Below are positions 6,409-40,053 of a stretch of DNA of 64,000 nt, piece after piece. Numbering within the stretch: the first letter of the stretch is position 1; the number at the start of each line of letters is the position of its first letter. The translations under genes and the position numbers were made by a program. The DNA is from Promethearchaeota archaeon (GTDB lineage: Archaea; Asgardarchaeota; Lokiarchaeia; Sigyniarchaeales; SOKP01). The stretch covers positions 32,001-96,000 of the forward strand of contig JBHLLU010000001.1 of the NCBI GenBank assembly GCA_048938895.1. The letters are read 5' to 3'. The notes below the pieces were generated by a model. The model saw nothing but the letters and a program-made list of their open reading frames with translations. It did not search any database and was not told where the DNA came from.

Positions 6409-6428
6409 ATTACAAACAGTCGATACAT

Positions 6429-23966: not shown

Positions 23967-24521
23967 ATGACCGATGCTCAAAAATTTCGATTTAAAATTT
24001 CAGTAATAGGCGATGGGCAAGTTGGTAAGACATCCTTAATTAAGAAATTTACACAAGGAACGTTTGAAAAAGATTATGTAAAAACAATTGGAGCCCAATT
24101 CTCTAAATTTGATAAAGAAATCGAAGGAGATGAAATACGGTTGATCTTTTGGGATATTGCGGGTCAGGATGATTTTCTTTTCCTAAGACCCTCATTTTAC
24201 AAGGATAGTGGTGCTGCAATTATTGTTTTTAGCCTTGAAGATAATGATCTTGGTAATCGAAGCTTCGAACATGTACTTAATTGGCATGAGAATTTGAAAA
24301 AATTTTGTGGGGATATACCTATCATCTTATTTGCTAATAAAGTGGATCTCATTGATGAGGAAAATTTTAATGACTCTGAAATTCAAGAAATGGTCAAAGA
24401 AAATAATTTTCTCGGATATTATTTAACTTCTGCAAAAACCGGAGAAAATGTTCATGATGCGTTCAATACCCTTATAGAAAAACTATATTATAAATCTAAA
24501 GCATTAACTAAGGACTTATAA
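23967..24521 (+). CDS. Rab/Ras-like small GTPase
   Basis: G1 GDGQVGKT, G2 YVKTIG, G3 WDIAGQ, G4 NKVD, G5 SAKTG; no C-terminal Cys. Confidence 0.93.
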   Translation: MTDAQKFRFKISVIGDGQVGKTSLIKKFTQGTFEKDYVKTIGAQFSKFDKEIEGDEIRLIFWDIAGQDDFLFLRPSFYKDSGAAIIVFSLEDNDLGNRSFEHVLNWHENLKKFCGDIPIILFANKVDLIDEENFNDSEIQEMVKENNFLGYYLTSAKTGENVHDAFNTLIEKLYYKSKALTKDL

Positions 24522-24533
24522 ATCATTTATATG

Positions 24534-27065
24534 TTAAAAATCAACATCTAGTTGAGCAATATCAGCCATGTAAAGATTCACTATAGCTAGCCACCTCTTT
24601 TTTGTGTCTAAATCACAAAAGCATTTATTAGTGTATTCTTGTCCTTTACTGAGATTTTCAAGTGCTAAGTCAAATTTTTCAAGTTCCTTATAACATATTC
24701 CTAACTTAATAAAAGTCTGATTAATATACCATTCATCACCTGCTAATTCTATTGTCTTTAAAAATTCATTAGCCGCTTTTTCATACTCTTCAAAATTCAT
24801 TAATATTTCTCCATATGTGTCATGATATATCCCCATATCAGGATTGTTCTTTATGAGCTCTTCTATTGTATCTAGGACCAATTCCTTCTCATCCAGATAC
24901 TGTAACCAATAAACTTTATTAAGCATAAGATTGTTATCATTCGGATATTTTTCAAGTAAACTATTTATAATTTCTAAACCGGCTTCAATATTTTTCATTT
25001 CTTTAAGTATGTATGCTTTTTTGATTTTAAGGTTTCTTTCTCCCTCAGGAAACTCAGTAATCAATTTATCTAAGATTATAATGATATCATCGAATTGGTC
25101 AAAATATAATAGGATTCGAATTTTAGAATTATGGAAATCTAGATTGCTAGGATTTAATTTTAGTGCCTGTTCAATTGATTCTAACGCTTCATCATATCGA
25201 TCGAGCTCTAGTAGGACTGTAGTTTTTAGGTGATATAAGTGTGCTTTAATAATATTATTTGACTCTAATTCAATCGCTTTCTCAATATAACTTATCCCAT
25301 CTTCTTTTTCTGCTATTTCTTTATTAAAATCATAAATTTTATTATAACCAAGTACAAACCCTTTTAATCCATAAGAGAGAGCACTTTTAAGGAACGTCTC
25401 CGTTGCTTTATCAGCCATTCTCAACGCATTTTCTATATCCCCCAAAACAATATATGAAAATCCTAAAACAAAAAGACCAGAAATATAGATTTCATCTTCT
25501 TCGGAAACAGAGGATAAATCAATCTTACCTTCCAATAATTCTGTTGTTTCATTATTACGATTCAAGTGGCATAGAATTAGACTTTTAATAATATTAAGAT
25601 CTAAGTCTTTTATTTTCGATTTAGAAGTACCAAAAACCTTTTCTAAATCTACTAACCTCAATGATTTATTATATTCTTCAGATTGGATATACTGTTGGAT
25701 CTTGAAATTTAGTTTTTCTAGTTTGAAAAATGGTTTAAAATACGGTTGTAAAACCTCTAATATTGACTTATCTAAATAATAATTCATTTCACTCTCACTT
25801 ATAAATTGGTATTGACTTTTAGAGATATCAGCTTGTAAAATTTCGGGTATATTTTGCCATATAATACCTTCTAATTTGTCAGCAACACCCATTAATTTCT
25901 TTTCCTTTTCAATTTTATATGCCAAATAATTTATATATTCTGGTAGAAATTTTCTTAAAGAGCTTTTTAATCCTTCATTGAATATATTTTGGCATGCTTC
26001 TTCTAGAATCGCATTTACAGTGGAACTCATATTTAATGGAAGTATTAATTCTGACGAACTTTCAAAAAGTTTGTTTAGATATGTAAATTTTGTGATATGT
26101 TCTTCTGTAATAACTTGAAGCATCTTTTCTAATTTTTCATCAGATTGAAAATAATAAAATTTATCAGGAGGAACAGTTAATTTAAAAAATTTTATAGGAT
26201 AGATCTGATTTTCTACTATTTCATCAATATAATAATCAAGTGTTGTTTGCTTAATCCTATATTTTTCTGAGAATTCCTTAGATGAGATATATGCCGGAAA
26301 CTCATTTGGGTGATTAATAGCAAGAAAAAGTAATATTTTCCTAAAGTTGTCTTCATCTTTTAATACAGACTTAATTTTTTCATATTCTAATCTTAAGACA
26401 CTGTTAAGAAATCGGAATTGAATATTCCTCTCTCTGATCTGAAAGCTATCAATAAATTTTGTAGTTTTTTGGGTAATATCAGCAATCCTTTTAATTTCTT
26501 CTTCAAGTATCGATTGTCTATCTAAGTTATAAAAAGTCAACATTTTTGAATACTGTGTTTTACCAGGTCGCGTAATCCTATATTCTTTATTTTCTTTTGT
26601 TACAAATCCTTTATCCATTAACAAGTTCATATTCTTTGATAATGAAGATTGATTTATCGAAAGTGGTTCTTCAAGAAAATCTGCCCATTTACAATAATTA
26701 TTATTATAAACCATCCATAAGATTGTATGATCATAATTTCTTCTTTCAAGAATAACTTTAGGAGGATAACTTAATTTTCTTTTCCCTTTTTTTGTTTGGC
26801 TTAATTCATAATATCTTTCTCTTCCTTTAGATGTAATCTTATATTCATTGAACTGGCTTTTTAAAATATAACCTTCGCGCTTCAGTTTACCCAAATAAAT
26901 TGATAATGTTGATTTATTTATTTTTTCTTTTAAATCTCCCCAGGAACATGCATCATTGTTACTTAATATCCAAAGTACGATGTATTCATAATTGGGCTTA
27001 CCGATAATAGGATTTAAAATCTCCTCCGGGGGATAATTACAAGAAGTACCCAAATCGTTTACCAT
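24534..27065 (-). CDS. Tandem winged-HTH + TPR protein, copy 2 (longer TPR region)
   Basis: Paralog of 21245-23140 (shared ILWMVYNNNYCKWADFL.EPLSINQSSLSKN, YINYLAYKIE, YHDTYGEILM) with about 210 extra residues, mostly TPR-like. Confidence 0.8.
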   Translation of the reverse strand: MVNDLGTSCNYPPEEILNPIIGKPNYEYIVLWILSNNDACSWGDLKEKINKSTLSIYLGKLKREGYILKSQFNEYKITSKGRERYYELSQTKKGKRKLSYPPKVILERRNYDHTILWMVYNNNYCKWADFLEEPLSINQSSLSKNMNLLMDKGFVTKENKEYRITRPGKTQYSKMLTFYNLDRQSILEEEIKRIADITQKTTKFIDSFQIRERNIQFRFLNSVLRLEYEKIKSVLKDEDNFRKILLFLAINHPNEFPAYISSKEFSEKYRIKQTTLDYYIDEIVENQIYPIKFFKLTVPPDKFYYFQSDEKLEKMLQVITEEHITKFTYLNKLFESSSELILPLNMSSTVNAILEEACQNIFNEGLKSSLRKFLPEYINYLAYKIEKEKKLMGVADKLEGIIWQNIPEILQADISKSQYQFISESEMNYYLDKSILEVLQPYFKPFFKLEKLNFKIQQYIQSEEYNKSLRLVDLEKVFGTSKSKIKDLDLNIIKSLILCHLNRNNETTELLEGKIDLSSVSEEDEIYISGLFVLGFSYIVLGDIENALRMADKATETFLKSALSYGLKGFVLGYNKIYDFNKEIAEKEDGISYIEKAIELESNNIIKAHLYHLKTTVLLELDRYDEALESIEQALKLNPSNLDFHNSKIRILLYFDQFDDIIIILDKLITEFPEGERNLKIKKAYILKEMKNIEAGLEIINSLLEKYPNDNNLMLNKVYWLQYLDEKELVLDTIEELIKNNPDMGIYHDTYGEILMNFEEYEKAANEFLKTIELAGDEWYINQTFIKLGICYKELEKFDLALENLSKGQEYTNKCFCDLDTKKRWLAIVNLYMADIAQLDVDF

Positions 27066-27216
27066 CAAAAAATCTTTTCTTATAATTAGTATATACGACA
27101 GGTTTATTTATATATTTTGATCAAAACTCTAATTAGAGTTAAATAAATGCTACTATTAATGGATTATATAAAAGGGGAATAGAATTAAAATGTGGGTATT
27201 ATCTAAAAAAATCTAG

Positions 27217-27254
27217 AACTTCATTTGGAGTTCCTTTAAATGAACTAAAAAGTA
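27217..27254 (+). promoter_or_regulatory. Operator+promoter copy C
   Basis: AACTTC-attt-GGAGTT-cctttaaa-TGAACTAAAAAGTA; same 4-nt and 8-nt spacers. Confidence 0.6.
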
Positions 27255-27374
27255 ACCGCTAAATTCTTAAAAAAAGCTTAAATTTTAATGTATTTTCAAT
27301 TTTAAGCTGGCCCATATAAAAATCTTCTGTTTTTGAAATCCTTAAAAATAAATTTCACTATAATTTAATTGATA

Positions 27375-27695
27375 ATGGCAAGCTTTACTTCTAGAGCTCA
27401 TTTAAGCGATTTTAAATATGCAGTTAAAATAATATCTGATTGTAGAGATAATTGGCTTCAGGATCAATTTCCAAATATTGACCAATTATTGTATGATTAT
27501 GGTTTAATAGATATTACTGGCAAAATTCAAGATTTTAAATCATATTACCAATTCAGAGATGCTCTTGATCATTTAACAGATTATAATTTCATTCGGATTT
27601 TCATCGATTCTAGATCAATTCCTCGAATTTACCAAGGAGGAAGAGAGATTCCAAATAACTTTACTTTTGATGATTACTGGTCAAGAAATGATTAA
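27375..27695 (+). CDS. Hypothetical protein (~106 aa)
   Basis: ORF downstream of operator copy C; no recognisable motif. Confidence 0.55.
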   Translation: MASFTSRAHLSDFKYAVKIISDCRDNWLQDQFPNIDQLLYDYGLIDITGKIQDFKSYYQFRDALDHLTDYNFIRIFIDSRSIPRIYQGGREIPNNFTFDDYWSRND

Positions 27696-27834
27696 TTCTT
27701 AGTTTAACAATTTTTCAAAAATATTGAAATTTTACCTTTTTGTATATAATCCAATTCTACTTCTAAGATCCAAACTCATATTAAACATCAATATCTTAGG
27801 TAATTGGATGTTTAAACATCTAAAACTAATCTTG

Positions 27835-27872
27835 GACTCCTTTTGAACTTCGTGAGCTTAAACTATAAATGA
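27835..27872 (+). promoter_or_regulatory. Operator+promoter copy D (degenerate)
   Basis: GACTCC-tttt-GAACTT-cgtgagct-TAAACTATAAATGA; same spacers, and the ATG at 27924 is again about 52 nt downstream. Confidence 0.55.
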
Positions 27873-27923
27873 AACCTTGGGTTAAGTAATCTTAGCAATA
27901 AAAAAAGAGAGTGATAATGAGAA

Positions 27924-28181
27924 ATGACACAAATAATTGCAAAGGAAGATACTCCTGTTGAACTTGAAGATTTACATATAATTCTGGCGAAACGCAAATT
28001 GAAACTTAAAACCAAGATCACTGAAGAAACTAAAAAACAACAATGCGAACTGTATGAATTATTTAAAGAATTTAATCCAAACTACTTTGAAGAAGCAATT
28101 CCAGTCAAAAATGCACTTGATAAGCTTTATACTTCAGATATCAAATTCAGATCTACATTCGATTTTTCTAGGATGTACTAA
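27924..28181 (+). CDS. Hypothetical protein (85 aa)
   Basis: GAGTGA SD-like site; follows promoter D. Confidence 0.6.
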   Translation: MTQIIAKEDTPVELEDLHIILAKRKLKLKTKITEETKKQQCELYELFKEFNPNYFEEAIPVKNALDKLYTSDIKFRSTFDFSRMY

Positions 28182-28215
28182 TATATTTGAATTAAAATTG
28201 AGAGGTGGTTGAAAT

Positions 28216-28479
28216 ATGGTTCAAGTATATATTAAGAAAAATGAATTGGAAAAACCGTATAAAATTGAAGAAATAATAATATATGAAGAACTCCCTGCTG
28301 AAAAGGAAGAGTATAGGGTAACAAGAGTCAAAGCAGAGGAGAAACCAGTTAAAAAAGCTTTGCGTAGGCTCATAGAGAAAGCAAAGTATAATCCGAAATA
28401 TATAGAAGAAACTTTTCTTATGGAAAAATTGAGAAGAGATATTCATAAGAATTATTATCGAAACTACGGAATCTACTAA
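28216..28479 (+). CDS. Hypothetical highly charged protein (87 aa)
   Basis: GAGGTG SD upstream; K/E-rich ORF co-oriented with neighbours. Confidence 0.65.
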   Translation: MVQVYIKKNELEKPYKIEEIIIYEELPAEKEEYRVTRVKAEEKPVKKALRRLIEKAKYNPKYIEETFLMEKLRRDIHKNYYRNYGIY

Positions 28480-28553
28480 AAATCGTTTTATTCTCATCAC
28501 GCTGATTCAATTCATCCGACAAGCCGAAGTAGTAAAGTCAGGGAGAAATCAGG

Positions 28554-28580
28554 GGAGGGGGATCTTTAAAATCCCCCTCC
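28554..28580. repeat. Perfect 10-bp inverted repeat GGAGGGGGAT-ctttaaa-ATCCCCCTCC
   Basis: Read directly; ends a GC-richer intergenic patch at 28495-28580. Confidence 0.8.
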
Positions 28581-28625
28581 ATTACAAAAAATTTGATATA
28601 TATTAAAATAAAAAAAGGAGGGCGA

Positions 28626-28724
28626 ATGAAAATGAAAAAGAAAAAATTGGAGAGAATTGAAAGGATTAAGATAAGGAACGATCTTGAAGAGCATAAGCTC
28701 CTAATTAATCGTATAATTAAATGA
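28626..28724 (+). CDS. Putative 30-32-aa micro-protein MKMKKKKLERIERIKIRNDLEEHKLLINRIIK (family Q?)
   Basis: GGAGGG SD at 28617-28622, T-tract after stop, weak similarity to 23706-23786 (basic N-terminus, IKI, H.LL, C-terminal hydrophobic-hydrophobic-K). Confidence 0.55.
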   Translation: MKMKKKKLERIERIKIRNDLEEHKLLINRIIK

Positions 28725-28783
28725 TTAATTTTTTCACATTTTTGAAAAATTATATATATACATTTAAATTAGAGGTAAAAAAA

Positions 28784-28879
28784 ATGCCAAAAAAGAAAGA
28801 AAAAGCATTGGATGCTACATTAACAGATTTGCTTTTAAATCCAAAGAAATATAAATTTGGATTAAAAGACCTACACTAA
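28784..28879 (+). CDS. Unannotated 31-aa micro-protein MPKKKEKALDATLTDLLLNPKKYKFGLKDLH (family P)
   Basis: GAGGT SD and T-tract terminator; shares KKE..TL.D..L.PKKY..GLKDL with 23285-23365. Confidence 0.75.
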   Translation: MPKKKEKALDATLTDLLLNPKKYKFGLKDLH

Positions 28880-29059
28880 AAAAATTTTTTTTTTATATTT
28901 ACTTTTAATGAATTAAGGATTAAGTATTTATGACAATCTTGTCAACGTTTAAATATTAGTATAAGGAGGCATAAGCCTAATAAATATTCGGGGAAATTTA
29001 TAGAAATAGAACTTCTTTAACTATTTCTTACAGTTTCCAGTAATAATTCGTTATAAACC

Positions 29060-29099
29060 AAAATTTTATATTAAAAAATATCTGATCTTAGTTTAATTA
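29060..29099 (+). promoter_or_regulatory. Conserved promoter of GTPase gene, copy 2
   Basis: AAAATTTTATATTA-N6-ATCT-N-ATCT-N4-TTAATTA, matched at 23887-23926. Confidence 0.6.
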
Positions 29100-29149
29100 C
29101 TTATTTTTTATAAAGAATATATTCCAAGTAATTTTCCCCTAAAAGATCT

Positions 29150-29713
29150 ATGAGTGAAGACGGGCGTAGGTTTAGGTTTAAAATAACGGTAATCGGAGAT
29201 GGTAGAGTAGGAAAGACTACTCTTATTAGGAGGTACACTCAAGGATCATTTAAAAAGGATTATGTTAAGACAATTGGGGCACAATTTTCAGTATATGATA
29301 ATGAAATTGGAGGAGATAAAGTCCGACTAATATTTTGGGATATTGCGGGACAAGATACGTTTCACTTCTTAAGACCTTCATTTTTTAGCAATAGTAAAGG
29401 AGCAATTATTGTATATAGTCTTGAAGACAATAAACACGGACATGATAGTTTTGACCACATCTCAATTTGGGATGAAGATATAAAAAAACACTGTGGTGAG
29501 ATTCCTGTTGTTTTATTTGCAAACAAAGTAGATTTAGTGGATGAATCTAATATAGATCAATCCGTCCTAAAAGAAATTGTCGAGGAGAATGGTTATCTTG
29601 GATATTATATAACTTCAGCAAAAACAGGAAAGGGAGTGTTTACAGCTTTCAATATTTTAATAGAAAATTTGTATAAATCGTCCAAAGCATTATCTCTTGA
29701 ATTACAAGATTAG
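29150..29713 (+). CDS. Rab/Ras-like small GTPase
   Basis: GDGRVGKT, YVKTIG, WDIAGQ, NKVD, SAKTG. Confidence 0.93.
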   Translation: MSEDGRRFRFKITVIGDGRVGKTTLIRRYTQGSFKKDYVKTIGAQFSVYDNEIGGDKVRLIFWDIAGQDTFHFLRPSFFSNSKGAIIVYSLEDNKHGHDSFDHISIWDEDIKKHCGEIPVVLFANKVDLVDESNIDQSVLKEIVEENGYLGYYITSAKTGKGVFTAFNILIENLYKSSKALSLELQD

Positions 29714-29866
29714 AATAGAACCAAAACTATTTCTTTCTTATTTCAAATTGTATATATTAGACTTACTAGACTTTTTATTCAAAAGCTTTATAATGTTTTA
29801 TACCTAGATTATGTTCATAAAATATTTTTTTAAAAACTTCATATTCCGAATTTCCAAGAAAAATTT

Positions 29867-30418
29867 ATGAAGGATATAAGTTTTGTTTTTAAAATTGTTG
29901 TTATAGGGGATGGAAGAGTAGGGAAAACTACACTAATTCAAAAATTTACAAAAAGCACCTTTAAGGAAGAATATATAAAAACAATTGGTGCCGATCTCTC
30001 AAATTACGATTATGTAATTGACAACGACAAAATTAGACTTCAATTCTGGGATATTGCAGGGCAAGATAAGTTTCATTTCTTACGTCCTTCATTTTTTAAC
30101 AAAAGTAGAGCAGGAATTATTGTTTATAGCCTTGAGGACAATAAACTTGGTCAAGAGAGTTTTAAGAATATCCCAAATTGGTATGCTGAAATCAAGAAAT
30201 ATTGTGGGGATATCCCAATTATTATTTTTGCTAATAAGGCAGATTTAGTAGAGTTTTCTCAAGTAGATGAAACCCCTATCCAAGAATTTGTTAAGGAAAA
30301 TAAATTGCTTGGTTATAAAATTACATCAGCTAAAACAGGAGAGGGAGTCATTGATGCTTTTAATACAATTATCAAAAATTTGTATGATAAATTTAAATCT
30401 CTTTCCGAAAATAGTTAA
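29867..30418 (+). CDS. Rab/Ras-like small GTPase
   Basis: GDGRVGKT, YIKTIG, WDIAGQ, NKAD, SAKTG. Confidence 0.93.
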   Translation: MKDISFVFKIVVIGDGRVGKTTLIQKFTKSTFKEEYIKTIGADLSNYDYVIDNDKIRLQFWDIAGQDKFHFLRPSFFNKSRAGIIVYSLEDNKLGQESFKNIPNWYAEIKKYCGDIPIIIFANKADLVEFSQVDETPIQEFVKENKLLGYKITSAKTGEGVIDAFNTIIKNLYDKFKSLSENS

Positions 30419-30553
30419 TTTTTTCTTAAATCTTTATCATTTTCATGCATTTTTCCAAAAAATACTATCATCGAATGCAATCCTTTATATATATAAAAAA
30501 ATAATATCAATTAATTTCAAATTAATTTTGTGCGAAATCAAAGAGGTGCTATT

Positions 30554-30784
30554 ATGGTAAATATTGAAATTGACGTCGTTAATAAACCTACAAATAGATT
30601 CAGAATTGAGCAGTATTTTGGGACACCAGTTGCTAATGAAATATTTCAATGTCTTCAACAACATATTGGTTTGTCTGCATCACAAGCAGAAGCACAACTA
30701 AGAGCTTCAATCCAAAGAACAGCAAATGCTATAGCAAAGGAAGATGAAATTATCACAATTATGGGATTTATAACTGTAGGTTAA
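30554..30784 (+). CDS. 76-aa small protein ending MGFITVG, candidate RiPP precursor 1
   Basis: GAGGTG SD before ATG 30554; paralog of 30853-31086; upstream of a B12-rSAM gene. Confidence 0.75.
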   Translation: MVNIEIDVVNKPTNRFRIEQYFGTPVANEIFQCLQQHIGLSASQAEAQLRASIQRTANAIAKEDEIITIMGFITVG

Positions 30785-30852
30785 AAATCCTTTATAAAAG
30801 GTTGAAAATATTAATCTAATTAAAATTAAGTACACTTCAATGAGGTGTTGAA

Positions 30853-31086
30853 ATGTCAATCAACGCAGATAAAGTAAAGAAAAAATCAAATAGAAAAAGA
30901 CTTGATAGATTCTTCGGCAGAGATAAAGCACAAACGATTATAGATTGCTTACAAGATTGTGTAAATCAAGGGAAATCAAGTGCTGATATGGGGGATTGTG
31001 TAAAAAATTGTCTTATCCAAAAAGGATTCAGCGCGTCTAAAGCCGATGAAGCAGTCAGTCTCATGGGTTTCATAACAGTAGGTTAA
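30853..31086 (+). CDS. 77-aa small protein with two CxxxC motifs ending MGFITVG, candidate RiPP precursor 2
   Basis: GAGGTG SD; shared pattern D.V.K..NR.R....FG...A..I..CLQ ... DE....MGFITVG. Confidence 0.78.
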   Translation: MSINADKVKKKSNRKRLDRFFGRDKAQTIIDCLQDCVNQGKSSADMGDCVKNCLIQKGFSASKADEAVSLMGFITVG

Positions 31087-31140
31087 AGGAAGAAGTTATT
31101 ATCTAATTTTTTTCATATAATTTTTCTAAAGTGGCTTATC

Positions 31141-33378
31141 TTGATCCCTGAATCTATAGATTTATTAATGATTTTTCCTTCAGGAGGGGATATTTATCAA
31201 ACAAATTTCAATCACCACCTAGGAACAGCATATATAATAGGTTATGTAAGGAAACATGGATTTAAAGCTAAACAGTTTTTATCAAACACCCAATATAATG
31301 TTAGAGAATGTGTTAAATCAATTTTCCAATACAATCCAAAAGTAATAGGGTTTACTGTTTATGAAAGCAATTATATGCAATCAGTTTTACTGTCGACTTT
31401 CATAAAAAAAGAAAAGCCTAATATTATTATAATTTTTGGGGGTCCTACTCCGACTATTCACTCTGAATACTTATTAAAACAAGTCAACAGTATTGATCTC
31501 TGTGTAAGACAAGAAGGTGAAGAAACTGTACTTGAAATTTTAAAAGAATTACAGAGTGTCAATTATACTATATCAAGAGCCAATTTTACTGAAATTAAAG
31601 GTATAATCTATAGAATTAAAGATCAAATCTTCAAAAATCCTGATAGTGACTACCTTTATTCAAAAAGACATATTAGGAATTACATTGATAAATATCCCTC
31701 TCCATACCTTTCTGAAATTATCCCTAAAAGTAAAGCTTTTCCCATAGGGATACTTACGGGAAGAGGATGTAATCAGTCTTGTACGTATTGTAACTGTGCT
31801 GTTTTAAGTAAAAAGAACATATATTTTCATTCAATAGGGAGAGTAATTGAAGAACTAGAATTTATTAGTCAACAAGAGAAATTTTCACATCCCATTCCTA
31901 TATATGATGATGCTTTTACAATAATTCCTTCACGAGCGAAAAAAATTTGCGAAACTATCATTGAAAAGGACATAAAAATTCCGTTATTATGTATTACTCG
32001 CTGTGATAAACTAAATGAAGAATTATTAGACCTTATGAAAATGGCAGGTTTCAAATCAATCGGTTTTTCTTTAGAGAGTGCTGTACCGAGAGTATTGAGA
32101 GCTATTGGTAAGGTTAGACCTGTGGATGTTGGCGATCCGCTGGATTTTGATAAAGAAGTTGAATACATTGAGAAATTAAAGCACATGACAAAGTATGCAA
32201 AAGAGATTGGGATGTTTCCTGTCTTTTTAAGTATTATGATTGGACTGCCTGGTGAATCCCTAAAAGATGCACAAAAAACCTTAGAAATGATAAAACAATT
32301 AGAAATTGACTATTATACTCACAATCTACTACATATTTTTAAAGGTACACCTTTATTTCAAGATCATGGCAAATATGGTTACAAAATTACCCCTATGGGT
32401 AAAAATAATCAAGTATTCACGATAAACAATTATCCATTTGATATAACAAAAATACATTTAGCTGACAACTCTACTAAAGAAAGGAATAGTAAGGTTATGG
32501 ATTATGATGTTTTTAATATTATATCTTTAAGATATATTCAAAAAGATTCAGAATCTCTTTTTTTCAAAAACATTATTATTGATAAAGATATAATTGAGCC
32601 CTCGTTAGTAAAATGGATGCAGGATATACTTGCAATTAATGGTATAATTATACATTTATATTCAAGCAAAAAGAATTATTTAAAATTCCATGAAAAAAAC
32701 GAAATGACCCTCTATAACGAATATTCTCCAACTAAAACATACGAATGTTACTATTGGGAAAATTTAGATAGGAGTCAACGATTAAAATCTGGCAGATTGC
32801 TTACTTATGGCGAGAAGGTAGGATTAAATATTGAAGTTAAAAGCACTGGTCTCGCTTTGGAAGAATATAATAAAGGATATAACACTGATTGTTTTATTGG
32901 GGCAAGCAGAACGAAAAATGATTCAGATTCTCTATATAAACTATTCCAAGAAATATCGAATGCGGAAAATAGTTTCAATTATTTATTAGACAATAACGCT
33001 CTCCCTCATTTCCAGAATCTATGTAGATGGATCAAAAATCAGGCAAATTGTGAGAAACTAGAAACAGTTATAGTTGATAAAAATAATTCCATTCGATTTT
33101 GTTGGCATTCAAGTCCAGTAGGAAAAGTTGGAATGCGCTTTTCTGAAATTAAAAGAAAGATAAATGACTTAAAAAAACAAGTAATAAAAATTAGAGGCTG
33201 TTATCAATGTAGTCAAGAACAATCTTGTCAATTATGTTTATCCCCTTTTCCTTTATCATCAAAAGAATATTGTGAGTACAAAATTTCTCAAGATACTAAT
33301 ACACCTGCCAATTTAATAAATGTATTTTATGTGATAAAAGATTTATTTTACAAACCAATTAATCCATATGATTTCTGA
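31141..33378 (+). CDS. Cobalamin-binding radical SAM enzyme with C-terminal SPASM-like Cys cluster
   Basis: B12 domain (LGTAYI, IGFTV, GGPTPT, EGEE); CxxxCxxC = CNQSCTYC; GLPGES; C-terminal RFCW..PVG and CYQCSQEQSCQLC. Confidence 0.85.
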   Translation: MIPESIDLLMIFPSGGDIYQTNFNHHLGTAYIIGYVRKHGFKAKQFLSNTQYNVRECVKSIFQYNPKVIGFTVYESNYMQSVLLSTFIKKEKPNIIIIFGGPTPTIHSEYLLKQVNSIDLCVRQEGEETVLEILKELQSVNYTISRANFTEIKGIIYRIKDQIFKNPDSDYLYSKRHIRNYIDKYPSPYLSEIIPKSKAFPIGILTGRGCNQSCTYCNCAVLSKKNIYFHSIGRVIEELEFISQQEKFSHPIPIYDDAFTIIPSRAKKICETIIEKDIKIPLLCITRCDKLNEELLDLMKMAGFKSIGFSLESAVPRVLRAIGKVRPVDVGDPLDFDKEVEYIEKLKHMTKYAKEIGMFPVFLSIMIGLPGESLKDAQKTLEMIKQLEIDYYTHNLLHIFKGTPLFQDHGKYGYKITPMGKNNQVFTINNYPFDITKIHLADNSTKERNSKVMDYDVFNIISLRYIQKDSESLFFKNIIIDKDIIEPSLVKWMQDILAINGIIIHLYSSKKNYLKFHEKNEMTLYNEYSPTKTYECYYWENLDRSQRLKSGRLLTYGEKVGLNIEVKSTGLALEEYNKGYNTDCFIGASRTKNDSDSLYKLFQEISNAENSFNYLLDNNALPHFQNLCRWIKNQANCEKLETVIVDKNNSIRFCWHSSPVGKVGMRFSEIKRKINDLKKQVIKIRGCYQCSQEQSCQLCLSPFPLSSKEYCEYKISQDTNTPANLINVFYVIKDLFYKPINPYDF

Positions 33379-33481
33379 TTATTGAATTAAACTTTTAAGT
33401 TAGTCTTTCTTCTTTTGTTTCATAAACCTTTAAAAAACACCAAGATTGCTCTGACGTAATTTTTTCTTAAGTAAATAAAAA

Positions 33482-35527
33482 ATGGAATCCATTATTAAAC
33501 CAGAGGAATATCTTCAAGCTGAAGAATTGATTTACCAGGCAAAATTTGATGATGCACTTGAATTGATCTCAAATTTCAAAAGAAGCACAAAAAAAGATTC
33601 TATGGAGTGGCTCTGGGGCTTAATATTAGAGGGAAGAATAAACTGCTATAAAGGTCAATATAAAAGAGCTATAGAAATTGGGAATATTGCTTATCTTCTT
33701 AGCCGAAAATTGGACCTTGTCCTTGAATCAGTGGAAGCTCTTCTAATCAGGGCTCATATAATATATTTAGCTAAAAGAGAAGAAGCTTTTGAAATTATCA
33801 CTTTAGCTGAAAAAATTTTCAATTCGCTTCTTAATGATTCTACGTCTAATTATCCTCGACAAAAAGCAGAAATTCTATTATTAAAATCTGAAATCTATCG
33901 TTCGAGGGGTGAACTTAATGAAGCATTTGAACTAGCTCGAGAATGTTTACTAATACAACAAAATCTAAAAAATAAAATTGATATTTCAAACGTTTATTAT
34001 CACTTAGCAAACCTATATCTTTACAATAGTGATTCTAATTCAGGTTTAGAATACGCATTGAAAAGTTTAACAATTCAAGAAGAACTTGGTTATCAGTCAG
34101 GAATTGCAGGTAGTTTGTACTTAGTAGGTACAAGTTATTTTGTTAGAGGTAACTTTGATCAAGCTTTGAAATTAGGGCGACAAAGTCTAAAGAGCAAAGA
34201 AATTAGCACTCTTACAAAACTCGAAGTATTAGATCTATTAGCAATGGTCTTTTTAGTCACTGGTCAATTAGATAGGGCATTAAAATATCGTAAAAGAGCA
34301 GCTATTATAGCTCAGAAAGAAAACTACGAGGAACAGTATATAATAAGTACTTATGGAATTGCAACAAATTTAAGAGCTAAAGGTGAATTTGATCTGGCTG
34401 TAGATTATCTTAAGAAAAGTTTGAAATTATCTGAAAATACAAATTCTACATTTGGGATAATGGCTTCACTTTTTCATCTAATTCTTACGACTCTTGATAA
34501 CAATAATCCTGAACAAGCTAAATTTTACTTGAGTCAGTTAGAAAAATATTGTGATCAAACAGAGAGTGATGTATTTAAAAATGTATATTTAATTTCAAAA
34601 GCATTAGTGTTAAAAAATAGTGGAAGAATTCGAAATCTTTCAGAAGCAGAAATAATACTGAGGGGGTTTACTGAAAAAGAAATTGAAACACCTCTTATAT
34701 ATCGATTAGCAATGGTCAATTTATGTGAACTTTTCTTAGAAGAACTAAAATTTACAAATAATGTTGAAGTTTTAGAGGATATTATTCCCTTAATTAACAA
34801 AATTTATAAGATTGCAGAGAAACAAAGTGCATATGCTTGGCTGGTGGAAATTAAAATATTGCAGGCAAAAATTTCCTTAATTCAAATGGATTTTGATGCC
34901 GCAGAACAATTATTAACTCAAGCTCAACGAATCGCAGAATTACAAGGTCTCACACTGTTAGCACTAAAAATATCTAGTGAACATGATAATTTACTGAACC
35001 AATTGAGTGAATGGAATAATCTTAAAAAAATAGACGCTCCTATGTCAGAGCGAATAGAGTTAGCTTCTTTTGATGGGGTTGTAGAACGATTACAAGGAAA
35101 AAGCACAATTGATCCTCCTTTAATAACTCCTGAAACTCCTGTATTGCTCCTTATTATTGGTCAGGGTGGATTCCCCTTATTTTCCAATCAATTTGAAGAG
35201 GGACATCAATTTGAAGAAGATCTTCTTAGTGGTTTTTTAGATGCAATTAATTCATTTAGTGGAGAACTTCTTTCTAAACAATTGGATCGTGTTAAATTTG
35301 AAGATTATATGATACTTATGCAAACCGTGGAGAACTTTTCTGTAGGGTATTTATTCAAAGGACAAACTTACATTGCTAAACAAAAATTAACTCAATTTAC
35401 AGAAAGTATTAAGAAAGATTCCACAATATGGCATACCTTAAATGTTTATTTCAACACAAGTCGGGTAGTAAAATTAGAGGATTTACCTTCTCTTCAAGCT
35501 TTAATCTTTAATATTTTTATTAAGTGA
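33482..35527 (+). CDS. TPR-repeat protein with C-terminal longin/roadblock-like domain
   Basis: Multiple TPR-like repeats (e.g. GNFDQALKL, GEFDLAVDYLKKSL). C-terminal LLIIGQGGFPLFS..F...DLLSGFLDAINSFSGEL resembles longin-like domains. Confidence 0.75.
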   Translation: MESIIKPEEYLQAEELIYQAKFDDALELISNFKRSTKKDSMEWLWGLILEGRINCYKGQYKRAIEIGNIAYLLSRKLDLVLESVEALLIRAHIIYLAKREEAFEIITLAEKIFNSLLNDSTSNYPRQKAEILLLKSEIYRSRGELNEAFELARECLLIQQNLKNKIDISNVYYHLANLYLYNSDSNSGLEYALKSLTIQEELGYQSGIAGSLYLVGTSYFVRGNFDQALKLGRQSLKSKEISTLTKLEVLDLLAMVFLVTGQLDRALKYRKRAAIIAQKENYEEQYIISTYGIATNLRAKGEFDLAVDYLKKSLKLSENTNSTFGIMASLFHLILTTLDNNNPEQAKFYLSQLEKYCDQTESDVFKNVYLISKALVLKNSGRIRNLSEAEIILRGFTEKEIETPLIYRLAMVNLCELFLEELKFTNNVEVLEDIIPLINKIYKIAEKQSAYAWLVEIKILQAKISLIQMDFDAAEQLLTQAQRIAELQGLTLLALKISSEHDNLLNQLSEWNNLKKIDAPMSERIELASFDGVVERLQGKSTIDPPLITPETPVLLLIIGQGGFPLFSNQFEEGHQFEEDLLSGFLDAINSFSGELLSKQLDRVKFEDYMILMQTVENFSVGYLFKGQTYIAKQKLTQFTESIKKDSTIWHTLNVYFNTSRVVKLEDLPSLQALIFNIFIK

Positions 35528-35551
35528 AATTGCTTTAGTTCAGGAAAAATT

Positions 35552-36106
35552 TTAGTTCTCCTTTAAAAATTCATAACCTGCATTTAAAGCTTTTAAGTTT
35601 ATTTCTATAAATCGAAGTGGAATAGATTCGGAGATAGATTTTTTAATTGCATTTAATGAAACAAGCTTAGTTTTTTTAATTAAAGCACCCAGCATTATAA
35701 TATTCACCAATTTTAGGTTTTTAAATTCTTGAGCAATACTATTAGCAGGTATTGGAAAGGTCATATCTGTAATATTTTCTAATTTTATCAGATCAGAATT
35801 TATAAATCTTAAACCCGAAGATTTCACCTGATTTGAGTAAAAATTATATGCATCATCACTATAAGCTACTAATATATCAACTTCAGATTCGGTAGGATAA
35901 GACGTTAACTCCCCTTCTGCAATAATTATATCACTTTTTACACGAGTACCTCTTTGCTCAGGACCATATGACTGAGTCTGTATGGCGTTTTTATTATCAT
36001 AAAGAGCTGCTTTACCTAAAATTATACATGATAAAATAACACCCATTCCACCGATTCCACAGAATCGAATGTTAACTTCCCCTTGCTCTTTTCTCCCAGA
36101 ATTCAT
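35552..36106 (-). CDS. korC: 2-oxoacid (2-oxoglutarate):ferredoxin oxidoreductase gamma subunit
   Basis: RFCGIGGMG, QTQSYGPEQRG, NIIMLGA; last gene of the kor operon. Confidence 0.85.
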   Translation of the reverse strand: MNSGRKEQGEVNIRFCGIGGMGVILSCIILGKAALYDNKNAIQTQSYGPEQRGTRVKSDIIIAEGELTSYPTESEVDILVAYSDDAYNFYSNQVKSSGLRFINSDLIKLENITDMTFPIPANSIAQEFKNLKLVNIIMLGALIKKTKLVSLNAIKKSISESIPLRFIEINLKALNAGYEFLKEN

Positions 36107-36953
36107 TTTTACTTGTTTCTTTTAATTTTTTGTATAATTCGTTAAAGGAGGGTTTATCAATATCAACTATTTCCCCAACGATTATTTTTCCTTCATAAGT
36201 ACCTGTGAAAGATTCTTGGTAGTCTTTCAATACACGAGCAGATGTTTCATCTTGTACTTTTTTTGAATATTTTATAGTTTCATCTAAAAAATACCTCAAC
36301 TGTTCTCTTGGATTTTTAAATTGTTTCTTATTTACAGGACAAGCAGAAATAATTTCAATGAATGAAAACCCTTTTTTTTGTAAGGCTTTTTTTATAGATC
36401 TAATCACTTGGAAAGAGTGCGCTGTAGTCCAACGTGCTACATAGACAGCCCCTGCTGCTTTGGCTAAAAACGAGAGATTGAATGCAAATTCAAAATTTTT
36501 ATATCGTGAAGTGCTACTTATTTCTCCTACAGGCGTGGTTGGTGATAATTGTCCTCCAGTCATACCATATGTTTCATTATTAATGCATATTACCAAGATA
36601 TCAAGGTTCCTTCGCACGGCTTGGAGAAAATGGTTTAAACCAATAGCCGCTAGATCTCCATCCCCGCTAAAAACGATTACCTTTAAATCAGGATTGGTGA
36701 CCTTTATACCTGTAGCAAATGCTATAGCACGTCCATGAGTAGTGTGGATTCCATCAGTATCAATATATGCAGGTAATCTGGATGAGCACCCAATTCCAGA
36801 GACAAAGACCAAGTCATTTTTGGAAATGTTTAAGTCATCAATCGCACGAATAGTATAGTTTAAAATTTGACCATTCCCACAACCAGGACAGAACATTGTA
36901 GGCATTAAATCTTTCCTTAAGTATTCATTTAATAATTCAGTCGATGATCTCAT
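36072..36953 (-). CDS. korB: 2-oxoacid:ferredoxin oxidoreductase beta subunit
   Basis: FCPGCG, SGIGCS, HGRA, GDGD...NNETYGMTGGQ (canonical order); start placed at ATG 36953. Confidence 0.9.
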   Translation of the reverse strand: MRSSTELLNEYLRKDLMPTMFCPGCGNGQILNYTIRAIDDLNISKNDLVFVSGIGCSSRLPAYIDTDGIHTTHGRAIAFATGIKVTNPDLKVIVFSGDGDLAAIGLNHFLQAVRRNLDILVICINNETYGMTGGQLSPTTPVGEISSTSRYKNFEFAFNLSFLAKAAGAVYVARWTTAHSFQVIRSIKKALQKKGFSFIEIISACPVNKKQFKNPREQLRYFLDETIKYSKKVQDETSARVLKDYQESFTGTYEGKIIVGEIVDIDKPSFNELYKKLKETSKNEFWEKRARGS

Positions 36954-38133
36954 TACTTTTTTCACCCTCTTTAATTTTTTTAAAAATATCTTCAGGAGAG
37001 GGAATAGCTCCTCCAATTCGACTTATTCTGTCGACATCACAATCCCCAATAGCATGTTCTTTTATTTTATGATATATCTGTCCGAGATTCATCTCTACCA
37101 CAATGAACTTTTTAATTCTTTGAGCCATTTCAGAGACAATATCATGGGGGAAAGGCCATATCGTAATTAATCTTAAATATCCAACTTTTAATCCTTCCTT
37201 ACGTGCTCTTTCAACTGCCATAAGTGTAGTTCTCGAAGATATACCATAGGATACAATAATAATTTCAGCATCTTCAATGTATTTTTCTTCATAAGTAATA
37301 ATATCTTTTCTGTTATCAGCAATTTTTTCATAAAATCTTCTCACGAGTTGTATATGAGTTTTTTCGTCATCTGTGGAGGGATAAGCTTTCCAATCATGAG
37401 TCAATCCTGTTAAATACGTATGATATCCGTTTCCAAATTTATCCATCTCTGGTACTTTTGTAGGATGAGAATAGCCTGTCCTAAAAGGATGATATTTTTC
37501 TTTTTCAATTGTTACTGGTACTCTTTTGACAATATCAACTTCTTTTTGAAAAGGAATAACTAATTTTTCTCTTGTATGAGCTATAGCTGCGTCGGATAAT
37601 ATTATTACTGGAACTCTATATTTATCAGCTAAATTAAAAGCTCTAATGGTCATCCATAAGTTTTCTTGTACACTATTCGGATAGACAGCAATTACATAAT
37701 GATCTCCATGAGTCCCCCAACGTGCTTGCATTATATCTCCTTGTGCTGCTTTTGTGGGTTGACCCGTAGAGGGTCCTGATCTTTGAACATTGACAATTAC
37801 GCAAGGAGTTTCTGTCATACATGCATATCCAATGTTTTCTTGCATGAGAGAAAAGCCAGGACCAGATGTAGCAGTCATTGTTCTATAATTATTCCAGCTT
37901 GCCCCTATTATCGCTGCCAATGAGCTAATTTCATCTTCCATCTGTAAAGAGTATCCATCCTCTAGGATTGGTAAATACTTCATCATCAATTCCAATATCT
38001 CAGTTGCAGGAGTAATTGGATATCCTGCAAAAAATCGACAATTTGCTAACAAAGCCCCATATACTATAGCTTCATTGCCCGTGGCAAATTGTAATTTGGG
38101 TGTTATTAATTCGTTAACTGTTGGACTTTTCAT
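36937..38133 (-). CDS. korA: 2-oxoacid:ferredoxin oxidoreductase alpha subunit
   Basis: GNEA, AGYPITP, MEDEI, TATSGPGFSLM, QRSGPSTG; start placed at ATG 38133. Confidence 0.9.
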   Translation of the reverse strand: MKSPTVNELITPKLQFATGNEAIVYGALLANCRFFAGYPITPATEILELMMKYLPILEDGYSLQMEDEISSLAAIIGASWNNYRTMTATSGPGFSLMQENIGYACMTETPCVIVNVQRSGPSTGQPTKAAQGDIMQARWGTHGDHYVIAVYPNSVQENLWMTIRAFNLADKYRVPVIILSDAAIAHTREKLVIPFQKEVDIVKRVPVTIEKEKYHPFRTGYSHPTKVPEMDKFGNGYHTYLTGLTHDWKAYPSTDDEKTHIQLVRRFYEKIADNRKDIITYEEKYIEDAEIIIVSYGISSRTTLMAVERARKEGLKVGYLRLITIWPFPHDIVSEMAQRIKKFIVVEMNLGQIYHKIKEHAIGDCDVDRISRIGGAIPSPEDIFKKIKEGEKSNEIID

Positions 38134-38137
38134 TTGT

Positions 38138-38344
38138 TCAATCCTCCTCTTCAACAGTTATTGCCATTTCTGGACAAATCAATTCACATTGTTTACATGA
38201 TGTGCAAGATGTTTCATTATCGACTCTAGGTAAGAAATATCCCTTTTTATTCAAGATATCAGATTCAACTAATACTTTTTTTGGGCAAATTTCAATACAA
38301 TATCCACAACCCTTACAATAATCTTCAAGTATTTGTATTGTCAT
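38138..38344 (-). CDS. korD: 2x[4Fe-4S] ferredoxin, delta subunit
   Basis: CKGCGYCIEICP and CTSCKQCELICP. Confidence 0.9.
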   Translation of the reverse strand: MTIQILEDYCKGCGYCIEICPKKVLVESDILNKKGYFLPRVDNETSCTSCKQCELICPEMAITVEEED

Positions 38345-38574
38345 TCAATGCCTCTTTTTTAATGCTCCTAATAGTATTATAAAGAATTTATTAAAATATT
38401 AATCTTTATTCGATCTATTTTATAAGAGTTCCTCCTTAGAAATCTTTATTTTAGAAATTTTTACTAAATAAAATCACCTAAGCTTTTAATGGTTCTTTTT
38501 AAAAGCATAATATGAATTTATTTTTGATAAAACATAATAAATTACTTATATAATCTTGAGATGAGAAATGAAAA

Positions 38575-39453
38575 ATGGATGCTATCGAATTAGAAGAAAA
38601 GATAATATCACTCATAAAGTTAGCAGTATTAGAATTGCCTTCCGATGTCGTTAGGAGCCTTGAGACTGCTTTTAAAAAAGAAACAAACGCTACAGCAAAA
38701 AATCAATTAGAAGCAATTCTTGAGAATGTAAAACTTGCTAAATCTCATTCAATACCAATTTGTCAAGATACAGGAATTCAAATCTTTTTTGTTAACGTTG
38801 GAACGAATTTTCCTCTTATTGGGAAATTGTCGTCAATTATAAGGGATTCAGTTAAAAAAGCTACACCTATAATTCCTTTAAGACCTAATACTGTAAATCC
38901 TTTAACAAATGAAAATCCTGGAGATAATAATGGATTAAGTATCCCATGGATAAATTGGAGGATTAATGAGGGAGATAATTTAGAAATTACAGTTTTCCCG
39001 AAAGGGGGTGGTTCTGAAAATATGTCTCAGTTATCGATGCTTACACCCGGACAAGGAATAAAAGGAATGAAACGCTTTGTAGTTGATACTGTTATAGAAG
39101 CTGGAGCAAAACCTTGCCCACCTACTATAATCGGGATTGGGCTAGGTGGTGGAGCAGATATTAGTATGAAGATTGCAAAGGAACAACTTCTTCGCCCATT
39201 AGGTCAACGTCATACAGATCATAAGATCGCAGAAATTGAATTGGAATTACTTGATGCACTAAATCAAACAGGAATTGGACCTATGGGTTTAGGGGGGAAT
39301 ACTACTGTCTTAGATGTTCATATTGGAACAACTATGAGACATCCGGCTTCATTCCCTGTAGGTCTTGTAATTCAGTGCTGGGCAGCGAGACGAGCATCAG
39401 CAACCATTACTAAAGATGGAAATATGATAATTACATCTCACGAGGTGAATTAA
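38575..39453 (+). CDS. Fe-S fumarate hydratase (two-subunit class I), alpha subunit
   Basis: PICQDTG, KGGGSEN, PCPP, GIGPMGLGG, CWAARR. Confidence 0.88.
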   Translation: MDAIELEEKIISLIKLAVLELPSDVVRSLETAFKKETNATAKNQLEAILENVKLAKSHSIPICQDTGIQIFFVNVGTNFPLIGKLSSIIRDSVKKATPIIPLRPNTVNPLTNENPGDNNGLSIPWINWRINEGDNLEITVFPKGGGSENMSQLSMLTPGQGIKGMKRFVVDTVIEAGAKPCPPTIIGIGLGGGADISMKIAKEQLLRPLGQRHTDHKIAEIELELLDALNQTGIGPMGLGGNTTVLDVHIGTTMRHPASFPVGLVIQCWAARRASATITKDGNMIITSHEVN

Positions 39454-39456
39454 GCT

Positions 39457-40053
39457 ATGGAATATGAATTAACTACACCAATATCTGAAGAAGACATTCG
39501 TAAATTACATGTAAACGATGTTATCTATATTACTGGTACGATATTTACAGCGAGGGATGAAGCACACGAAAGAGCTTTAGAATGGTTTAAAGAAGGAAAA
39601 CAACTACCAATTGATCCACTCGGTTTAGCCGTTTTTCATTGTGGCCCTATTGTTCGTAAAGTCGATGAGGGATGGGAGATGGTTGCCGCTGGTCCAACCA
39701 CGAGTACCAGGATGGAGATGTTTGAAGCTGAGTTTATAGAAGCATTTAAACCTCGCGTAATAATCGGAAAAGGAGGCATGGGTTCTAAAACAGCAGCGGC
39801 TATGGAAAAAATTGGGGCTGTATATGGGGCTCATGTCGGTGGAGCAGCCGTATTAGCTGCAAAGGCTGTGAAAAGGATTATCGATGTATCTTGGTTGGAT
39901 CTCGGTATGCCTGAAGCATTATGGATAATGGAGGTTAATCGGTTTGGGCCGTTAATAGTTGCAATAGACACGTATGGCTCTAATTTATATGAAGAAGTTA
40001 AAAGAAATGTAGGACAAAATCAAATAGAAATCTATAAAAAATTAGGATTTTAA
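39457..40053 (+). CDS. Fe-S fumarate hydratase, beta subunit
   Basis: TARDEAH, HCGP, GPTTSTRM, IGKGGM, LGMPEA. Confidence 0.88.
   Translation: MEYELTTPISEEDIRKLHVNDVIYITGTIFTARDEAHERALEWFKEGKQLPIDPLGLAVFHCGPIVRKVDEGWEMVAAGPTTSTRMEMFEAEFIEAFKPRVIIGKGGMGSKTAAAMEKIGAVYGAHVGGAAVLAAKAVKRIIDVSWLDLGMPEALWIMEVNRFGPLIVAIDTYGSNLYEEVKRNVGQNQIEIYKKLGF

Follow-up and report, generated by a model that had tools for sequence, protein, structure and literature searches.

Two small paralogous proteins and a radical S-adenosylmethionine (SAM) enzyme with a predicted cobalamin (B12)-binding domain are encoded one after the other in a stretch of 64,000 nucleotides from a Promethearchaeota archaeon (lineage Sigyniarchaeales, SOKP01; assembly GCA_048938895.1, contig JBHLLU010000001.1, positions 32,001 to 96,000), which is referred to as the window. 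Together, these three genes probably represent an undescribed tail-modifying system that is found in Loki-type Asgard archaea and in some anaerobic bacteria. The best explanation of the whole, in which we place moderate confidence, is that the two small open reading frames (ORFs A and B) encode precursors, and that the adjacent enzyme binds their leader and modifies their tail, most likely by methylation. Each small protein would begin with a folded, helical leader of approximately 60 residues and end in a short hydrophobic core. The enzyme would bind the leader by a helix with the sequence FNYLL, which precedes a module with eight cysteines, and by its last helix, and the leader-bound tail would then be modified in the cobalamin/radical SAM active site. 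The most likely reaction would be methylation of an unactivated carbon in a tail of the type (F/W/Y/H)-x-(T/I/V)-(V/I/L/A)-G, for example at the beta-carbon of either the aromatic or a beta-branched residue. C-methylation is favored because the methylation of unactivated carbons is the default chemistry of the class B (cobalamin-binding) radical SAM fold.

Co-occurrence of the small proteins and the enzyme

A profile, designated A4, was derived from the alignment of 28 small proteins from enzyme loci, and both this profile and the enzyme were compared with 61 related genomes (approximately 230 Mb), 36 of which belong to the same genus as the window genome. Full-length orthologues of the enzyme (52-71% identity) are encoded by 14 of the 36 same-genus genomes, and a more distant orthologue (44%) was detected in one genome of another genus. 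The A4 profile matched proteins in exactly the window genome and the same 14 enzyme carriers, and all 18 matches are located less than 1 kb upstream of the enzyme gene, on the same contig and strand, with none elsewhere. Within the genus the small proteins and the enzyme are co-present in 14 of 14 genomes and co-absent from 22 of 22, and no significant match other than ORFs A and B was obtained in the window genome. The precursor-enzyme pair behaves as a unit that is gained or lost together, the 61 genomes being kin, for which co-occurrence is not a statistical test.

Nearly every orthologue locus contains one or two small ORFs directly upstream of the enzyme gene and on the same strand. Such ORFs at the loci of enzyme homologues had been named beforehand as a check in a first-pass annotation of the window, and they were indeed encountered: a profile match on the strand of the enzyme was obtained at 34 of 35 family loci from named public genomes, 25 of which had helped to build the profile and have circular matches, and at 9 of the 10 independent loci outside the profile. 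Four loci that encode other B12 radical SAM enzymes (L061-L064) gave no profile match (0/4).

The enzyme family comprises 283 matches with an expectation value (E) of 0.001 or better in a large protein collection, and the best 120 of these are 484-763 amino acids long and at least 39% identical. Named archaeal records include metagenome-assembled genomes (MAGs) labelled Promethearchaeota, Thor-, Hermod-, and Hodarchaeota, as well as the complete genome of Lokiarchaeum ossiferum. The latter (CP104013.1, locus L047) carries a diverged pair, with a small ORF within 5614-5850 (E 8e-5) and the enzyme (43% identity) at 5923-8193; a tetratricopeptide repeat (TPR) protein is encoded upstream of this pair, and not downstream as in the window. 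The first-pass annotation had proposed an archaeal system, which is too narrow in view of full-length bacterial enzymes of 36-42% identity in Bacteroidales, Aminicenantes, a Desulfobacteraceae MAG, and Hebobacterum. A small ORF of the same leader family precedes the enzyme gene in all six Bacteroidales loci, in both Aminicenantes loci, and in Hebobacterum. In a quick tree search with midpoint rooting, 24 genus-level archaeal enzymes formed one supported group (Shimodaira-Hasegawa-like approximate likelihood-ratio test, SH-aLRT, 97), next to which L. ossiferum is placed on a long branch, and the clades of bacterial enzymes fall outside.

A locus from an Aminicenantes MAG (L060, 3365-10934) encodes three full-length enzyme paralogues in tandem together with three family small ORFs; one of these directly precedes the first enzyme gene, and the third enzyme gene has one upstream and one downstream. 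A class I SAM methyltransferase is encoded upstream at this locus, and the Desulfobacteraceae locus (L054) has four B12 radical SAM genes in tandem.

Most of the loci originate from a single genus-level group of non-independent kin, and the adjacency could be inherited synteny among close relatives that implies no functional link. This explanation is hardly credible, and it is already contradicted because the pairing crosses phyla: it recurs in Bacteroidota, Aminicenantes, and Hebobacterum, with enzymes that are only 36-42% identical and with unrelated flanking genes. Moreover, it does not account for the pair being present or absent as a unit within the genus (14 genomes with, 22 without).

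A small-protein family with a conserved leader and a variable tail

Searching 1.84 billion representative proteins with the A4 profile yielded 138 matches at an E of 0.001 or better, and 133 of these proteins are 60-107 amino acids long. Tail counts refer to these 133 representatives and leave out the long repeat-like proteins. The N-terminal 55-60 residues are conserved and display the motif T-(I/V)-K-(D/E)-(I/L)-(F/L)-x-x-x-(F/L)-G-x-x-x-A, followed by two more helices, and the last 10-15 residues are clade-variable and hydrophobic, with V, I, P, W, H, and F overrepresented and K and E underrepresented. Glycine is the C-terminal residue in 42 of the 133 representatives, and 25 fit a tail of the form (F/W/Y/H)-x-(T/I/V)-(V/I/L/A/F)-G. 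Tandem precursor copies are found in the window, in two related genomes (G016 and G028), at locus L031, and at the Aminicenantes locus L053. Comparison of the 28 aligned members with Pfam and NCBIfam revealed no precursor-peptide family, and gave only single chance-level matches to unrelated families. Weak Pfam and NCBIfam matches to Vanabin-2, TsoC, and RecX were dismissed, being far under the cut-offs. [quoted passage not shown]

Four of the proteins that match the leader profile, P0121 (755 amino acids, seven stretches), P0177 (242 amino acids), P0209, and P0253, contain three to seven tandem leader-profile segments each. These were rejected as precursors, as they look like repeat proteins that reuse a similar helical hairpin, and at least P0121 and P0177 have a hydrophobic N-terminal stretch that resembles a signal peptide. 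The helical hairpin of the leader may be a reused module.

ORFs A and B, with an overall identity of 34% (BLASTP E 5e-16), share the C-terminal end MGFITVG. The first-pass annotation had reported that this heptapeptide is encoded with three synonymous differences, which was confirmed by codon comparison: the 21 nucleotides read atg gga ttt ata act gta ggt in ORF A and atg ggt ttc ata aca gta ggt in ORF B, with all three differences at third positions. The seven identical terminal residues stand out because the paralogues are only 34% identical overall, and an identical heptapeptide with synonymous differences only points to protein-level selection on the tail. MGFITVG is also C-terminal in the orthologue at locus L026 and in the metagenome representatives P0128 and P0181. 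A core boundary at a conserved DE, as had been put forward, does not extend to the family, these residues being kept only between the two window paralogues. The tails were also considered as C-terminal sorting signals; this was rejected, in view of the missing N-terminal signal peptide and of a tail length of only 7-15 residues.

The helical leader of ORF A spans approximately residues 1-65. In ORF B the leader contains two CxxxC pairs on apparently neighboring helices, and three of these four cysteines have been lost in ORF A. Two such pairs are present in 16 of the 133 representatives, including ORF B, and 62 of the 133 contain no cysteine at all; the twin pairs could form a metal site or a disulfide staple. 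The own model of ORF B in the ESM Atlas is confident and compact (predicted template modeling score, pTM, 0.81; predicted local distance difference test, pLDDT, 0.87), and its structural neighbors are mostly helical proteins, whereby the Atlas offered no usable feature match and only generic helical bundles as neighbors.

Both small ORFs are preceded by GAGGTG at 5 nucleotides before the ATG, and the same 10-mer, ATCCTTTATA, is located 66-74 nucleotides upstream of each of them. The ATCCTTTATA/TATA-like stretch is a putative promoter, and a run of seven thymidines after ORF B is a putative terminator. Because the two genes share the spacing of GAGGTG as well as ATCCTTTATA, the sequence suggests that their duplication included the expression signals.

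Cobalamin and radical SAM domains of the enzyme

The enzyme is encoded directly downstream of ORF B in the same orientation, and its cobalamin-binding domain, its CxxxCxxC motif, and its C-terminal CxxCx5CxxC motif, all described in the first-pass annotation, were recovered by Pfam and motif analysis (Table 1). The three cysteines of the CxxxCxxC motif in the radical SAM core (C210-x3-C214-x2-C217) are invariant in 67 homologues, and the same holds for G100, G101, D119, C121, E127, and E128 of the cobalamin domain. An AlphaFold 2 (AF2) model of the full enzyme, based on the 67 homologues, reached a pLDDT of 89.1 and a pTM of 0.90. Over the first approximately 450 residues of this model, Foldseek found matches to CysS (9n1c, E 3e-17), TokK (7kdy), TsrM (6wte), and MgmA (9ccb), at E values from 3e-17 to 7e-15, template modeling (TM) scores by target of 0.46-0.64, and identities of 16-18%, and the list also includes the non-methylating B12 enzymes OxsB and AprD4, a diol dehydratase with a B12 fold. 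Sequence and model agree in assigning a class B radical SAM fold to the N-terminal approximately 450 residues, and the enzyme is predicted to bind cobalamin and to depend on it for turnover.

None of the established NCBIfam families claims the enzyme as a member. The best match, to PhpK (TIGR04479), scored 102.3 bits against a cut-off of 600, the second-best, to ApyD (NF050148), scored 98.7 bits (E 2.9e-28) against 750, and the scores for HpnJ (TIGR03471) and the RiPP C-methyltransferase family TIGR03975 were 92 bits against 577.6 and 60.9 bits against 281.85, respectively. HpnJ, HpnR, and one lipid-biosynthesis family are among the weak NCBIfam matches.

The C-terminal half and its relation to SPASM domains

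No Pfam or NCBIfam family matches the C-terminal approximately 300 residues, and none of the fold matches to CysS, TokK, TsrM, and MgmA extends into this region, of which a separate AF2 model (residues 440-745) reached a pLDDT of 86.9. The middle domain ends in the conserved FNYLL helix (612-616), and another helix is located near the C-terminus (720-737). Between these are eight cysteines (C628, C637, C654, C687, C690, C696, C699, and C711) that do not vary among 14 and among 67 homologues. Four of them form the motif C687-x2-C690-x5-C696-x2-C699, and the order of elements in the AF2 model is Cys, Cys, beta-hairpin, Cys, long helix, CxxCx5CxxC, Cys. The eight cysteines probably hold one or two auxiliary iron-sulfur (Fe-S) clusters.

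The first-pass annotation had assigned a SPASM domain to this region. The excerpt of PMC9477430 that bears on the matter defines SPASM domains by the presence, C-terminal to the barrel, of seven or eight cysteines that are conserved. Conserved cysteines in this number are present in the enzyme, and they are located approximately 240 residues past the radical SAM core and not directly after it. The SPASM maturases anSME, CteB, MftC, and PqqE (TIGR04085) resemble the present enzyme in the eight-cysteine arrangement and, as predicted here, in having a substrate encoded by a neighboring small ORF. The order and spacing of the cysteines are those that we take to be typical of SPASM domains, save that the last spacing is x2, where the canonical one presumably is x3. 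We know of no SPASM enzyme with a cobalamin domain.

Searches of the C-terminal 146 and 325 residues for SPASM in Pfam and NCBIfam, at E values up to 10, gave nothing relevant. Among 27 C-termini of the family, five matched TIGR04085 weakly (best E 0.0015) and four matched a radical SAM/SPASM peptide maturase model. A profile of these 27 C-termini retrieved only chance matches (E of at least 0.4) from all PDB sequences, and a comparison by hhalign with five SPASM domains encoded in the same genome returned a probability of 7.8%. Foldseek with the model of residues 440-745 retrieved nothing from the PDB at E below 0.02, and anSME (4k37) came up only at rank 42 (E 0.08, probability 0.63, TM 0.42). 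The module is best described as SPASM-like, and membership of the SPASM family, as judged by profiles, hhalign, and fold, is unproven.

These data bear on a serious rival, which nevertheless is unlikely: the same pair may carry out a non-methylating reaction, leading to a crosslink or a rearrangement in the tail. Such chemistry could be a carbon-carbon link from the conserved aromatic residue to the residue two positions on (a three-residue cyclophane), or an oxidative change at the C-terminal (V/I/L/A)-Gly, aided by the auxiliary Fe-S clusters of the eight-cysteine module. The SPASM-like order and spacing of the invariant cysteines and the weak matches of some family C-termini to the two SPASM models are consistent with it, as are the tails that read aromatic-x-(T/I/V)-hydrophobic-Gly (25/133) or end in Gly (42/133), and the presence of OxsB and AprD4 among the structural matches. 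Against it stand the weak or failed SPASM tests and the many bacterial tails that have no aromatic residue at a fixed position, and the cobalamin domain with its acidic GEGE-type motif, both invariant in the family, fits methyl transfer.

Modeled recognition of the leader

The enzyme and ORF A, each with its own alignment, were co-folded in three runs and compared with three controls. The interface score ipSAE (interaction prediction score from aligned errors) was 0.67 in the three runs and 0.00 for the best of the controls, a mark that is reached by 58 of 80 solved complexes and by 2 of 110 mismatched pairs, whereby these benchmark counts hold only roughly because custom alignments served as input. 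The runs agree in at least 50% of the contacts, and the pLDDT of the partner is at least 58. Confident contacts connect residues 10-21 and 30-53 of the leader with residues 579-583, 612-620, and 721-736 of the enzyme, which places the most conserved leader motif against the FNYLL helix region and the last helix. The model supports recognition of the leader by the C-terminal half of the enzyme. The precursor/maturase idea of the first-pass annotation is strongly supported, in so far as a leader-core pair is concerned, by co-occurrence, adjacency, the conserved leaders with variable tails, and the modeled docking; the chemistry that was proposed with it, and the role of the tail as the substrate, would follow from the fold of the enzyme and from the family pattern.

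Several observations weigh against the view that ORFs A and B are precursors with a methylated tail. Besides the circular part of the profile matches mentioned above, the Desulfobacteraceae locus L054 contains no small ORF in the 1.5 kb of upstream sequence available. The complex model gives the tail no confident placement. No protease or exporter adjoins the pair in the window, according to ORFs and Pfam matches, which agrees with the first-pass annotation (the neighbors being Ras-family GTPases, a TPR protein, and ORFs resembling 2-oxoacid:ferredoxin oxidoreductase), and no gene for leader removal or export is conserved over the 35 clustered loci that were used for neighbor counts (the window region plus 34 of 39 fetched loci). 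Moreover, class B enzymes also catalyze non-methylating reactions, so that an increase of 14 Da in mass need not follow. Leaders are not usually folded domains, as the small proteins are predicted to be, and such a fold would suit a stable partner protein equally well. Finally, the system is known here from genes and models, and the modification of the tail is a prediction.

Some of these observations suit a different arrangement, in which the small proteins are accessory subunits, serving as adaptor, chaperone, or regulator, of an enzyme whose substrate is something else, such as a lipid, a cofactor, or another protein. The predicted compact helical domains, the restriction of the confident model contacts to the folded part, and the absence of a protease or exporter from the window and of a conserved one from the clustered loci agree with it, as does the fact that lipids and small molecules are also substrates of B12 radical SAM enzymes, HpnJ, HpnR, and one lipid-biosynthesis family being represented in the weak NCBIfam matches. 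This arrangement is very unlikely, however, as a conserved body with a hypervariable tail and tandem paralogues with different tails would be unexpected for an accessory subunit, and in the window paralogues it is the tail, and not the body, that is under the strongest purifying selection.

Locus organization and neighboring genes

The features of the locus are listed in Table 1.

Table 1. Features of the precursor-enzyme locus and its surroundings, in window coordinates.
Feature	Position	Strand	Basis
Ras/Rab-like small GTPase, first of tandem pair	29150-29713	+	PF00071; pair E 2e-39 and 2e-42
Ras/Rab-like small GTPase, second of tandem pair	29867-30418	+	PF00071; pair E 2e-39 and 2e-42
A+T-rich, TATA-like stretch starting with ATCCTTTATA	30480-30499	+	read from sequence
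ORF A, precursor-like small protein, 76 amino acids from ATG	30554-30784	+	ORF and translation
Coding sequence of tail MGFITVG, ORF A	30761-30781	+	
Second copy of ATCCTTTATA, upstream of ORF B	30787-30796	+	read from sequence
ORF B, precursor-like small protein, 77 amino acids, paralogue of ORF A	30853-31086	+	ORF and translation
Coding sequence of tail MGFITVG, ORF B	31063-31083	+	
T7 run downstream of ORF B	31107-31113	+	read from sequence
Enzyme, 745 amino acids, TTG start; B12-binding, radical SAM, and unassigned C-terminal half with eight-cysteine module	31141-33378	+	
Cobalamin-binding domain, residues 24-133	31210-31539	+	PF02310, 55 bits (cut-off 32.1), E 8.8e-15
Radical SAM core, residues 205-384	31753-32292	+	PF04055, 61.2 bits (cut-off 29.5), E 1.9e-16
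Middle alpha/beta domain of the enzyme, residues ~440-621, no family recognized	32458-33003	+	AF2 model
Cysteine-rich C-terminal module, residues 622-745	33004-33378	+	invariant cysteines and AF2 model
TPR protein, 681 amino acids, with 140-residue C-terminal domain without assigned family	33482-35527	+	TPR Pfam matches

The TPR protein encoded next to the enzyme appears to be co-inherited with the precursor-enzyme pair. Orthologues with at least 48% identity, among the matches listed, were detected in all 14 enzyme-carrying genomes of the genus, and in 13 of these the gene adjoins that of the enzyme; in the remaining genome (G032) it is on a separate contig, the contig of the enzyme ending there. 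The best listed match in the 22 same-genus genomes that do not encode the enzyme is 43% identical. A TPR protein adjoins the enzyme in 25 of the 35 clustered loci and flanks the pair in five of the six Bacteroidales loci, the latter being weak evidence as TPR proteins are common there. The TPR family is strongly expanded: at an E of 1e-50 or better the window genome has 13 matches, and some relatives have at least 19. The C-terminal 140 residues of the TPR protein gave no Pfam match, and a weak resemblance to Roadblock/longin-like domains (0.83) serves as a lead only.

GTPase genes occur near the enzyme in 19 of the 35 clustered loci, and a divergent winged-helix/TPR protein is a further frequent neighbor. 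The tandem GTPases, encoded directly upstream of the precursors in the window, are treated as context of the precursor-enzyme pair. The sole protease that turned up beside a pair is an M4 peptidase, encoded downstream at one Aminicenantes locus (L053).

Other genes recur at some distance from the pair. An M3-family oligopeptidase (PF01432) is encoded 4-5 kb upstream of the enzyme in five Asgard loci (e.g., L030:143-1741), and none was seen in the window region 24000-40000. In many Asgard loci an ORF of 84-87 amino acids, which starts with MVQV, has a basic Y/F tail, and belongs to no Pfam family, is located 0.5-1 kb upstream of the precursors (window 28216-28479, + strand; L033:5148-5402, L036:5163-5420, L042:5214-5468). 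Finally, two overlapping ORFs on the opposite strand of the window (35552-37016) resemble the gamma and beta subunits of 2-oxoacid:ferredoxin oxidoreductase, as judged by sequence only, and are kept beside the TPR gene in a few loci.

Comparison with known systems and implications

Ribosomal precursors that are paired with B12 radical SAM maturases are already known as a kind of system, and it is the leader family and the enzyme architecture that are new. CysS, TokK, and TsrM, which share the fold of the first approximately 450 residues, differ in acting on small molecules or carrier-bound intermediates, with the exception of MgmA among these fold relatives, which is the glutamine methylase of methyl-coenzyme M reductase. 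By analogy, the nearest working systems would be ApyD and MpcB/MpcC, and the present system appears to be a member of neither. ApyD, from the aminopyruvatide (ApyA/ApyD) pathway, beta-methylates the tyrosine next to the C-terminus of its precursor ApyA, as described in the excerpt of PMC11117315, which also bears out the likeness to the present system, namely a cobalamin radical SAM enzyme with built-in peptide recognition and an aromatic target near the C-terminus. [quoted passage not shown] Moreover, to our knowledge ApyD has no eight-cysteine C-terminal module.

In the clavusporin system of Streptomyces (MpcA/MpcB/MpcC), MpcB and MpcC perform leader-dependent multiple C-methylation of a hydrophobic core in which Val, Ile, Thr, and Pro abound, according to the portion of PMC10849626 that covers it, and an enrichment in V, I, P, and T is also seen in the tails of the present family. 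The same portion of PMC10849626 describes a separate partner protein (MpcC), a dedicated peptidase and transporter, and an actinobacterial host, as well as a short leader, of which loss of the first 17 residues nearly abolishes methylation, and an acidic follower in most precursors. The present system, which was compared with Mpc by description only, differs by a folded leader of approximately 60 residues, a C-terminal core, recognition that is apparently fused to the enzyme, and the lack of a conserved peptidase or transporter. It is set apart by the new family of long folded leaders, the fusion of recognition and the eight-cysteine module to the enzyme, the absence of a peptidase and transporter, and its occurrence in Asgard archaea. 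We know of no radical-SAM-modified ribosomal peptide or protein that has been described from Asgard archaea. A search of full-text literature returned no publication on this precursor/enzyme family, its coverage excluding supplementary tables (e.g., those of PMC10288494 and PMC10849626).

The fate of the product may differ from that of an exported, antibiotic-type peptide. The product could be a small folded protein, the modified tail of which serves as an intracellular ligand for the co-inherited TPR/longin-like protein, and the enzyme could represent a new three-part class that combines a cobalamin domain, a radical SAM core, and a leader-recognizing auxiliary-cluster module. We regard this combined proposal as quite unlikely; if true, it would connect the modification of a protein by a radical SAM enzyme with the cassettes of Rab-like GTPases in Asgard archaea.

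The new leader family and the unusual enzyme architecture are common to Loki-type archaea and anaerobic bacteria, and because of these two properties the system offers a clean target for new B12 radical chemistry. Since the record of the cultured L. ossiferum (CP104013.1) carries a copy, the modified tail that is predicted here can be searched for in a living Asgard archaeon.

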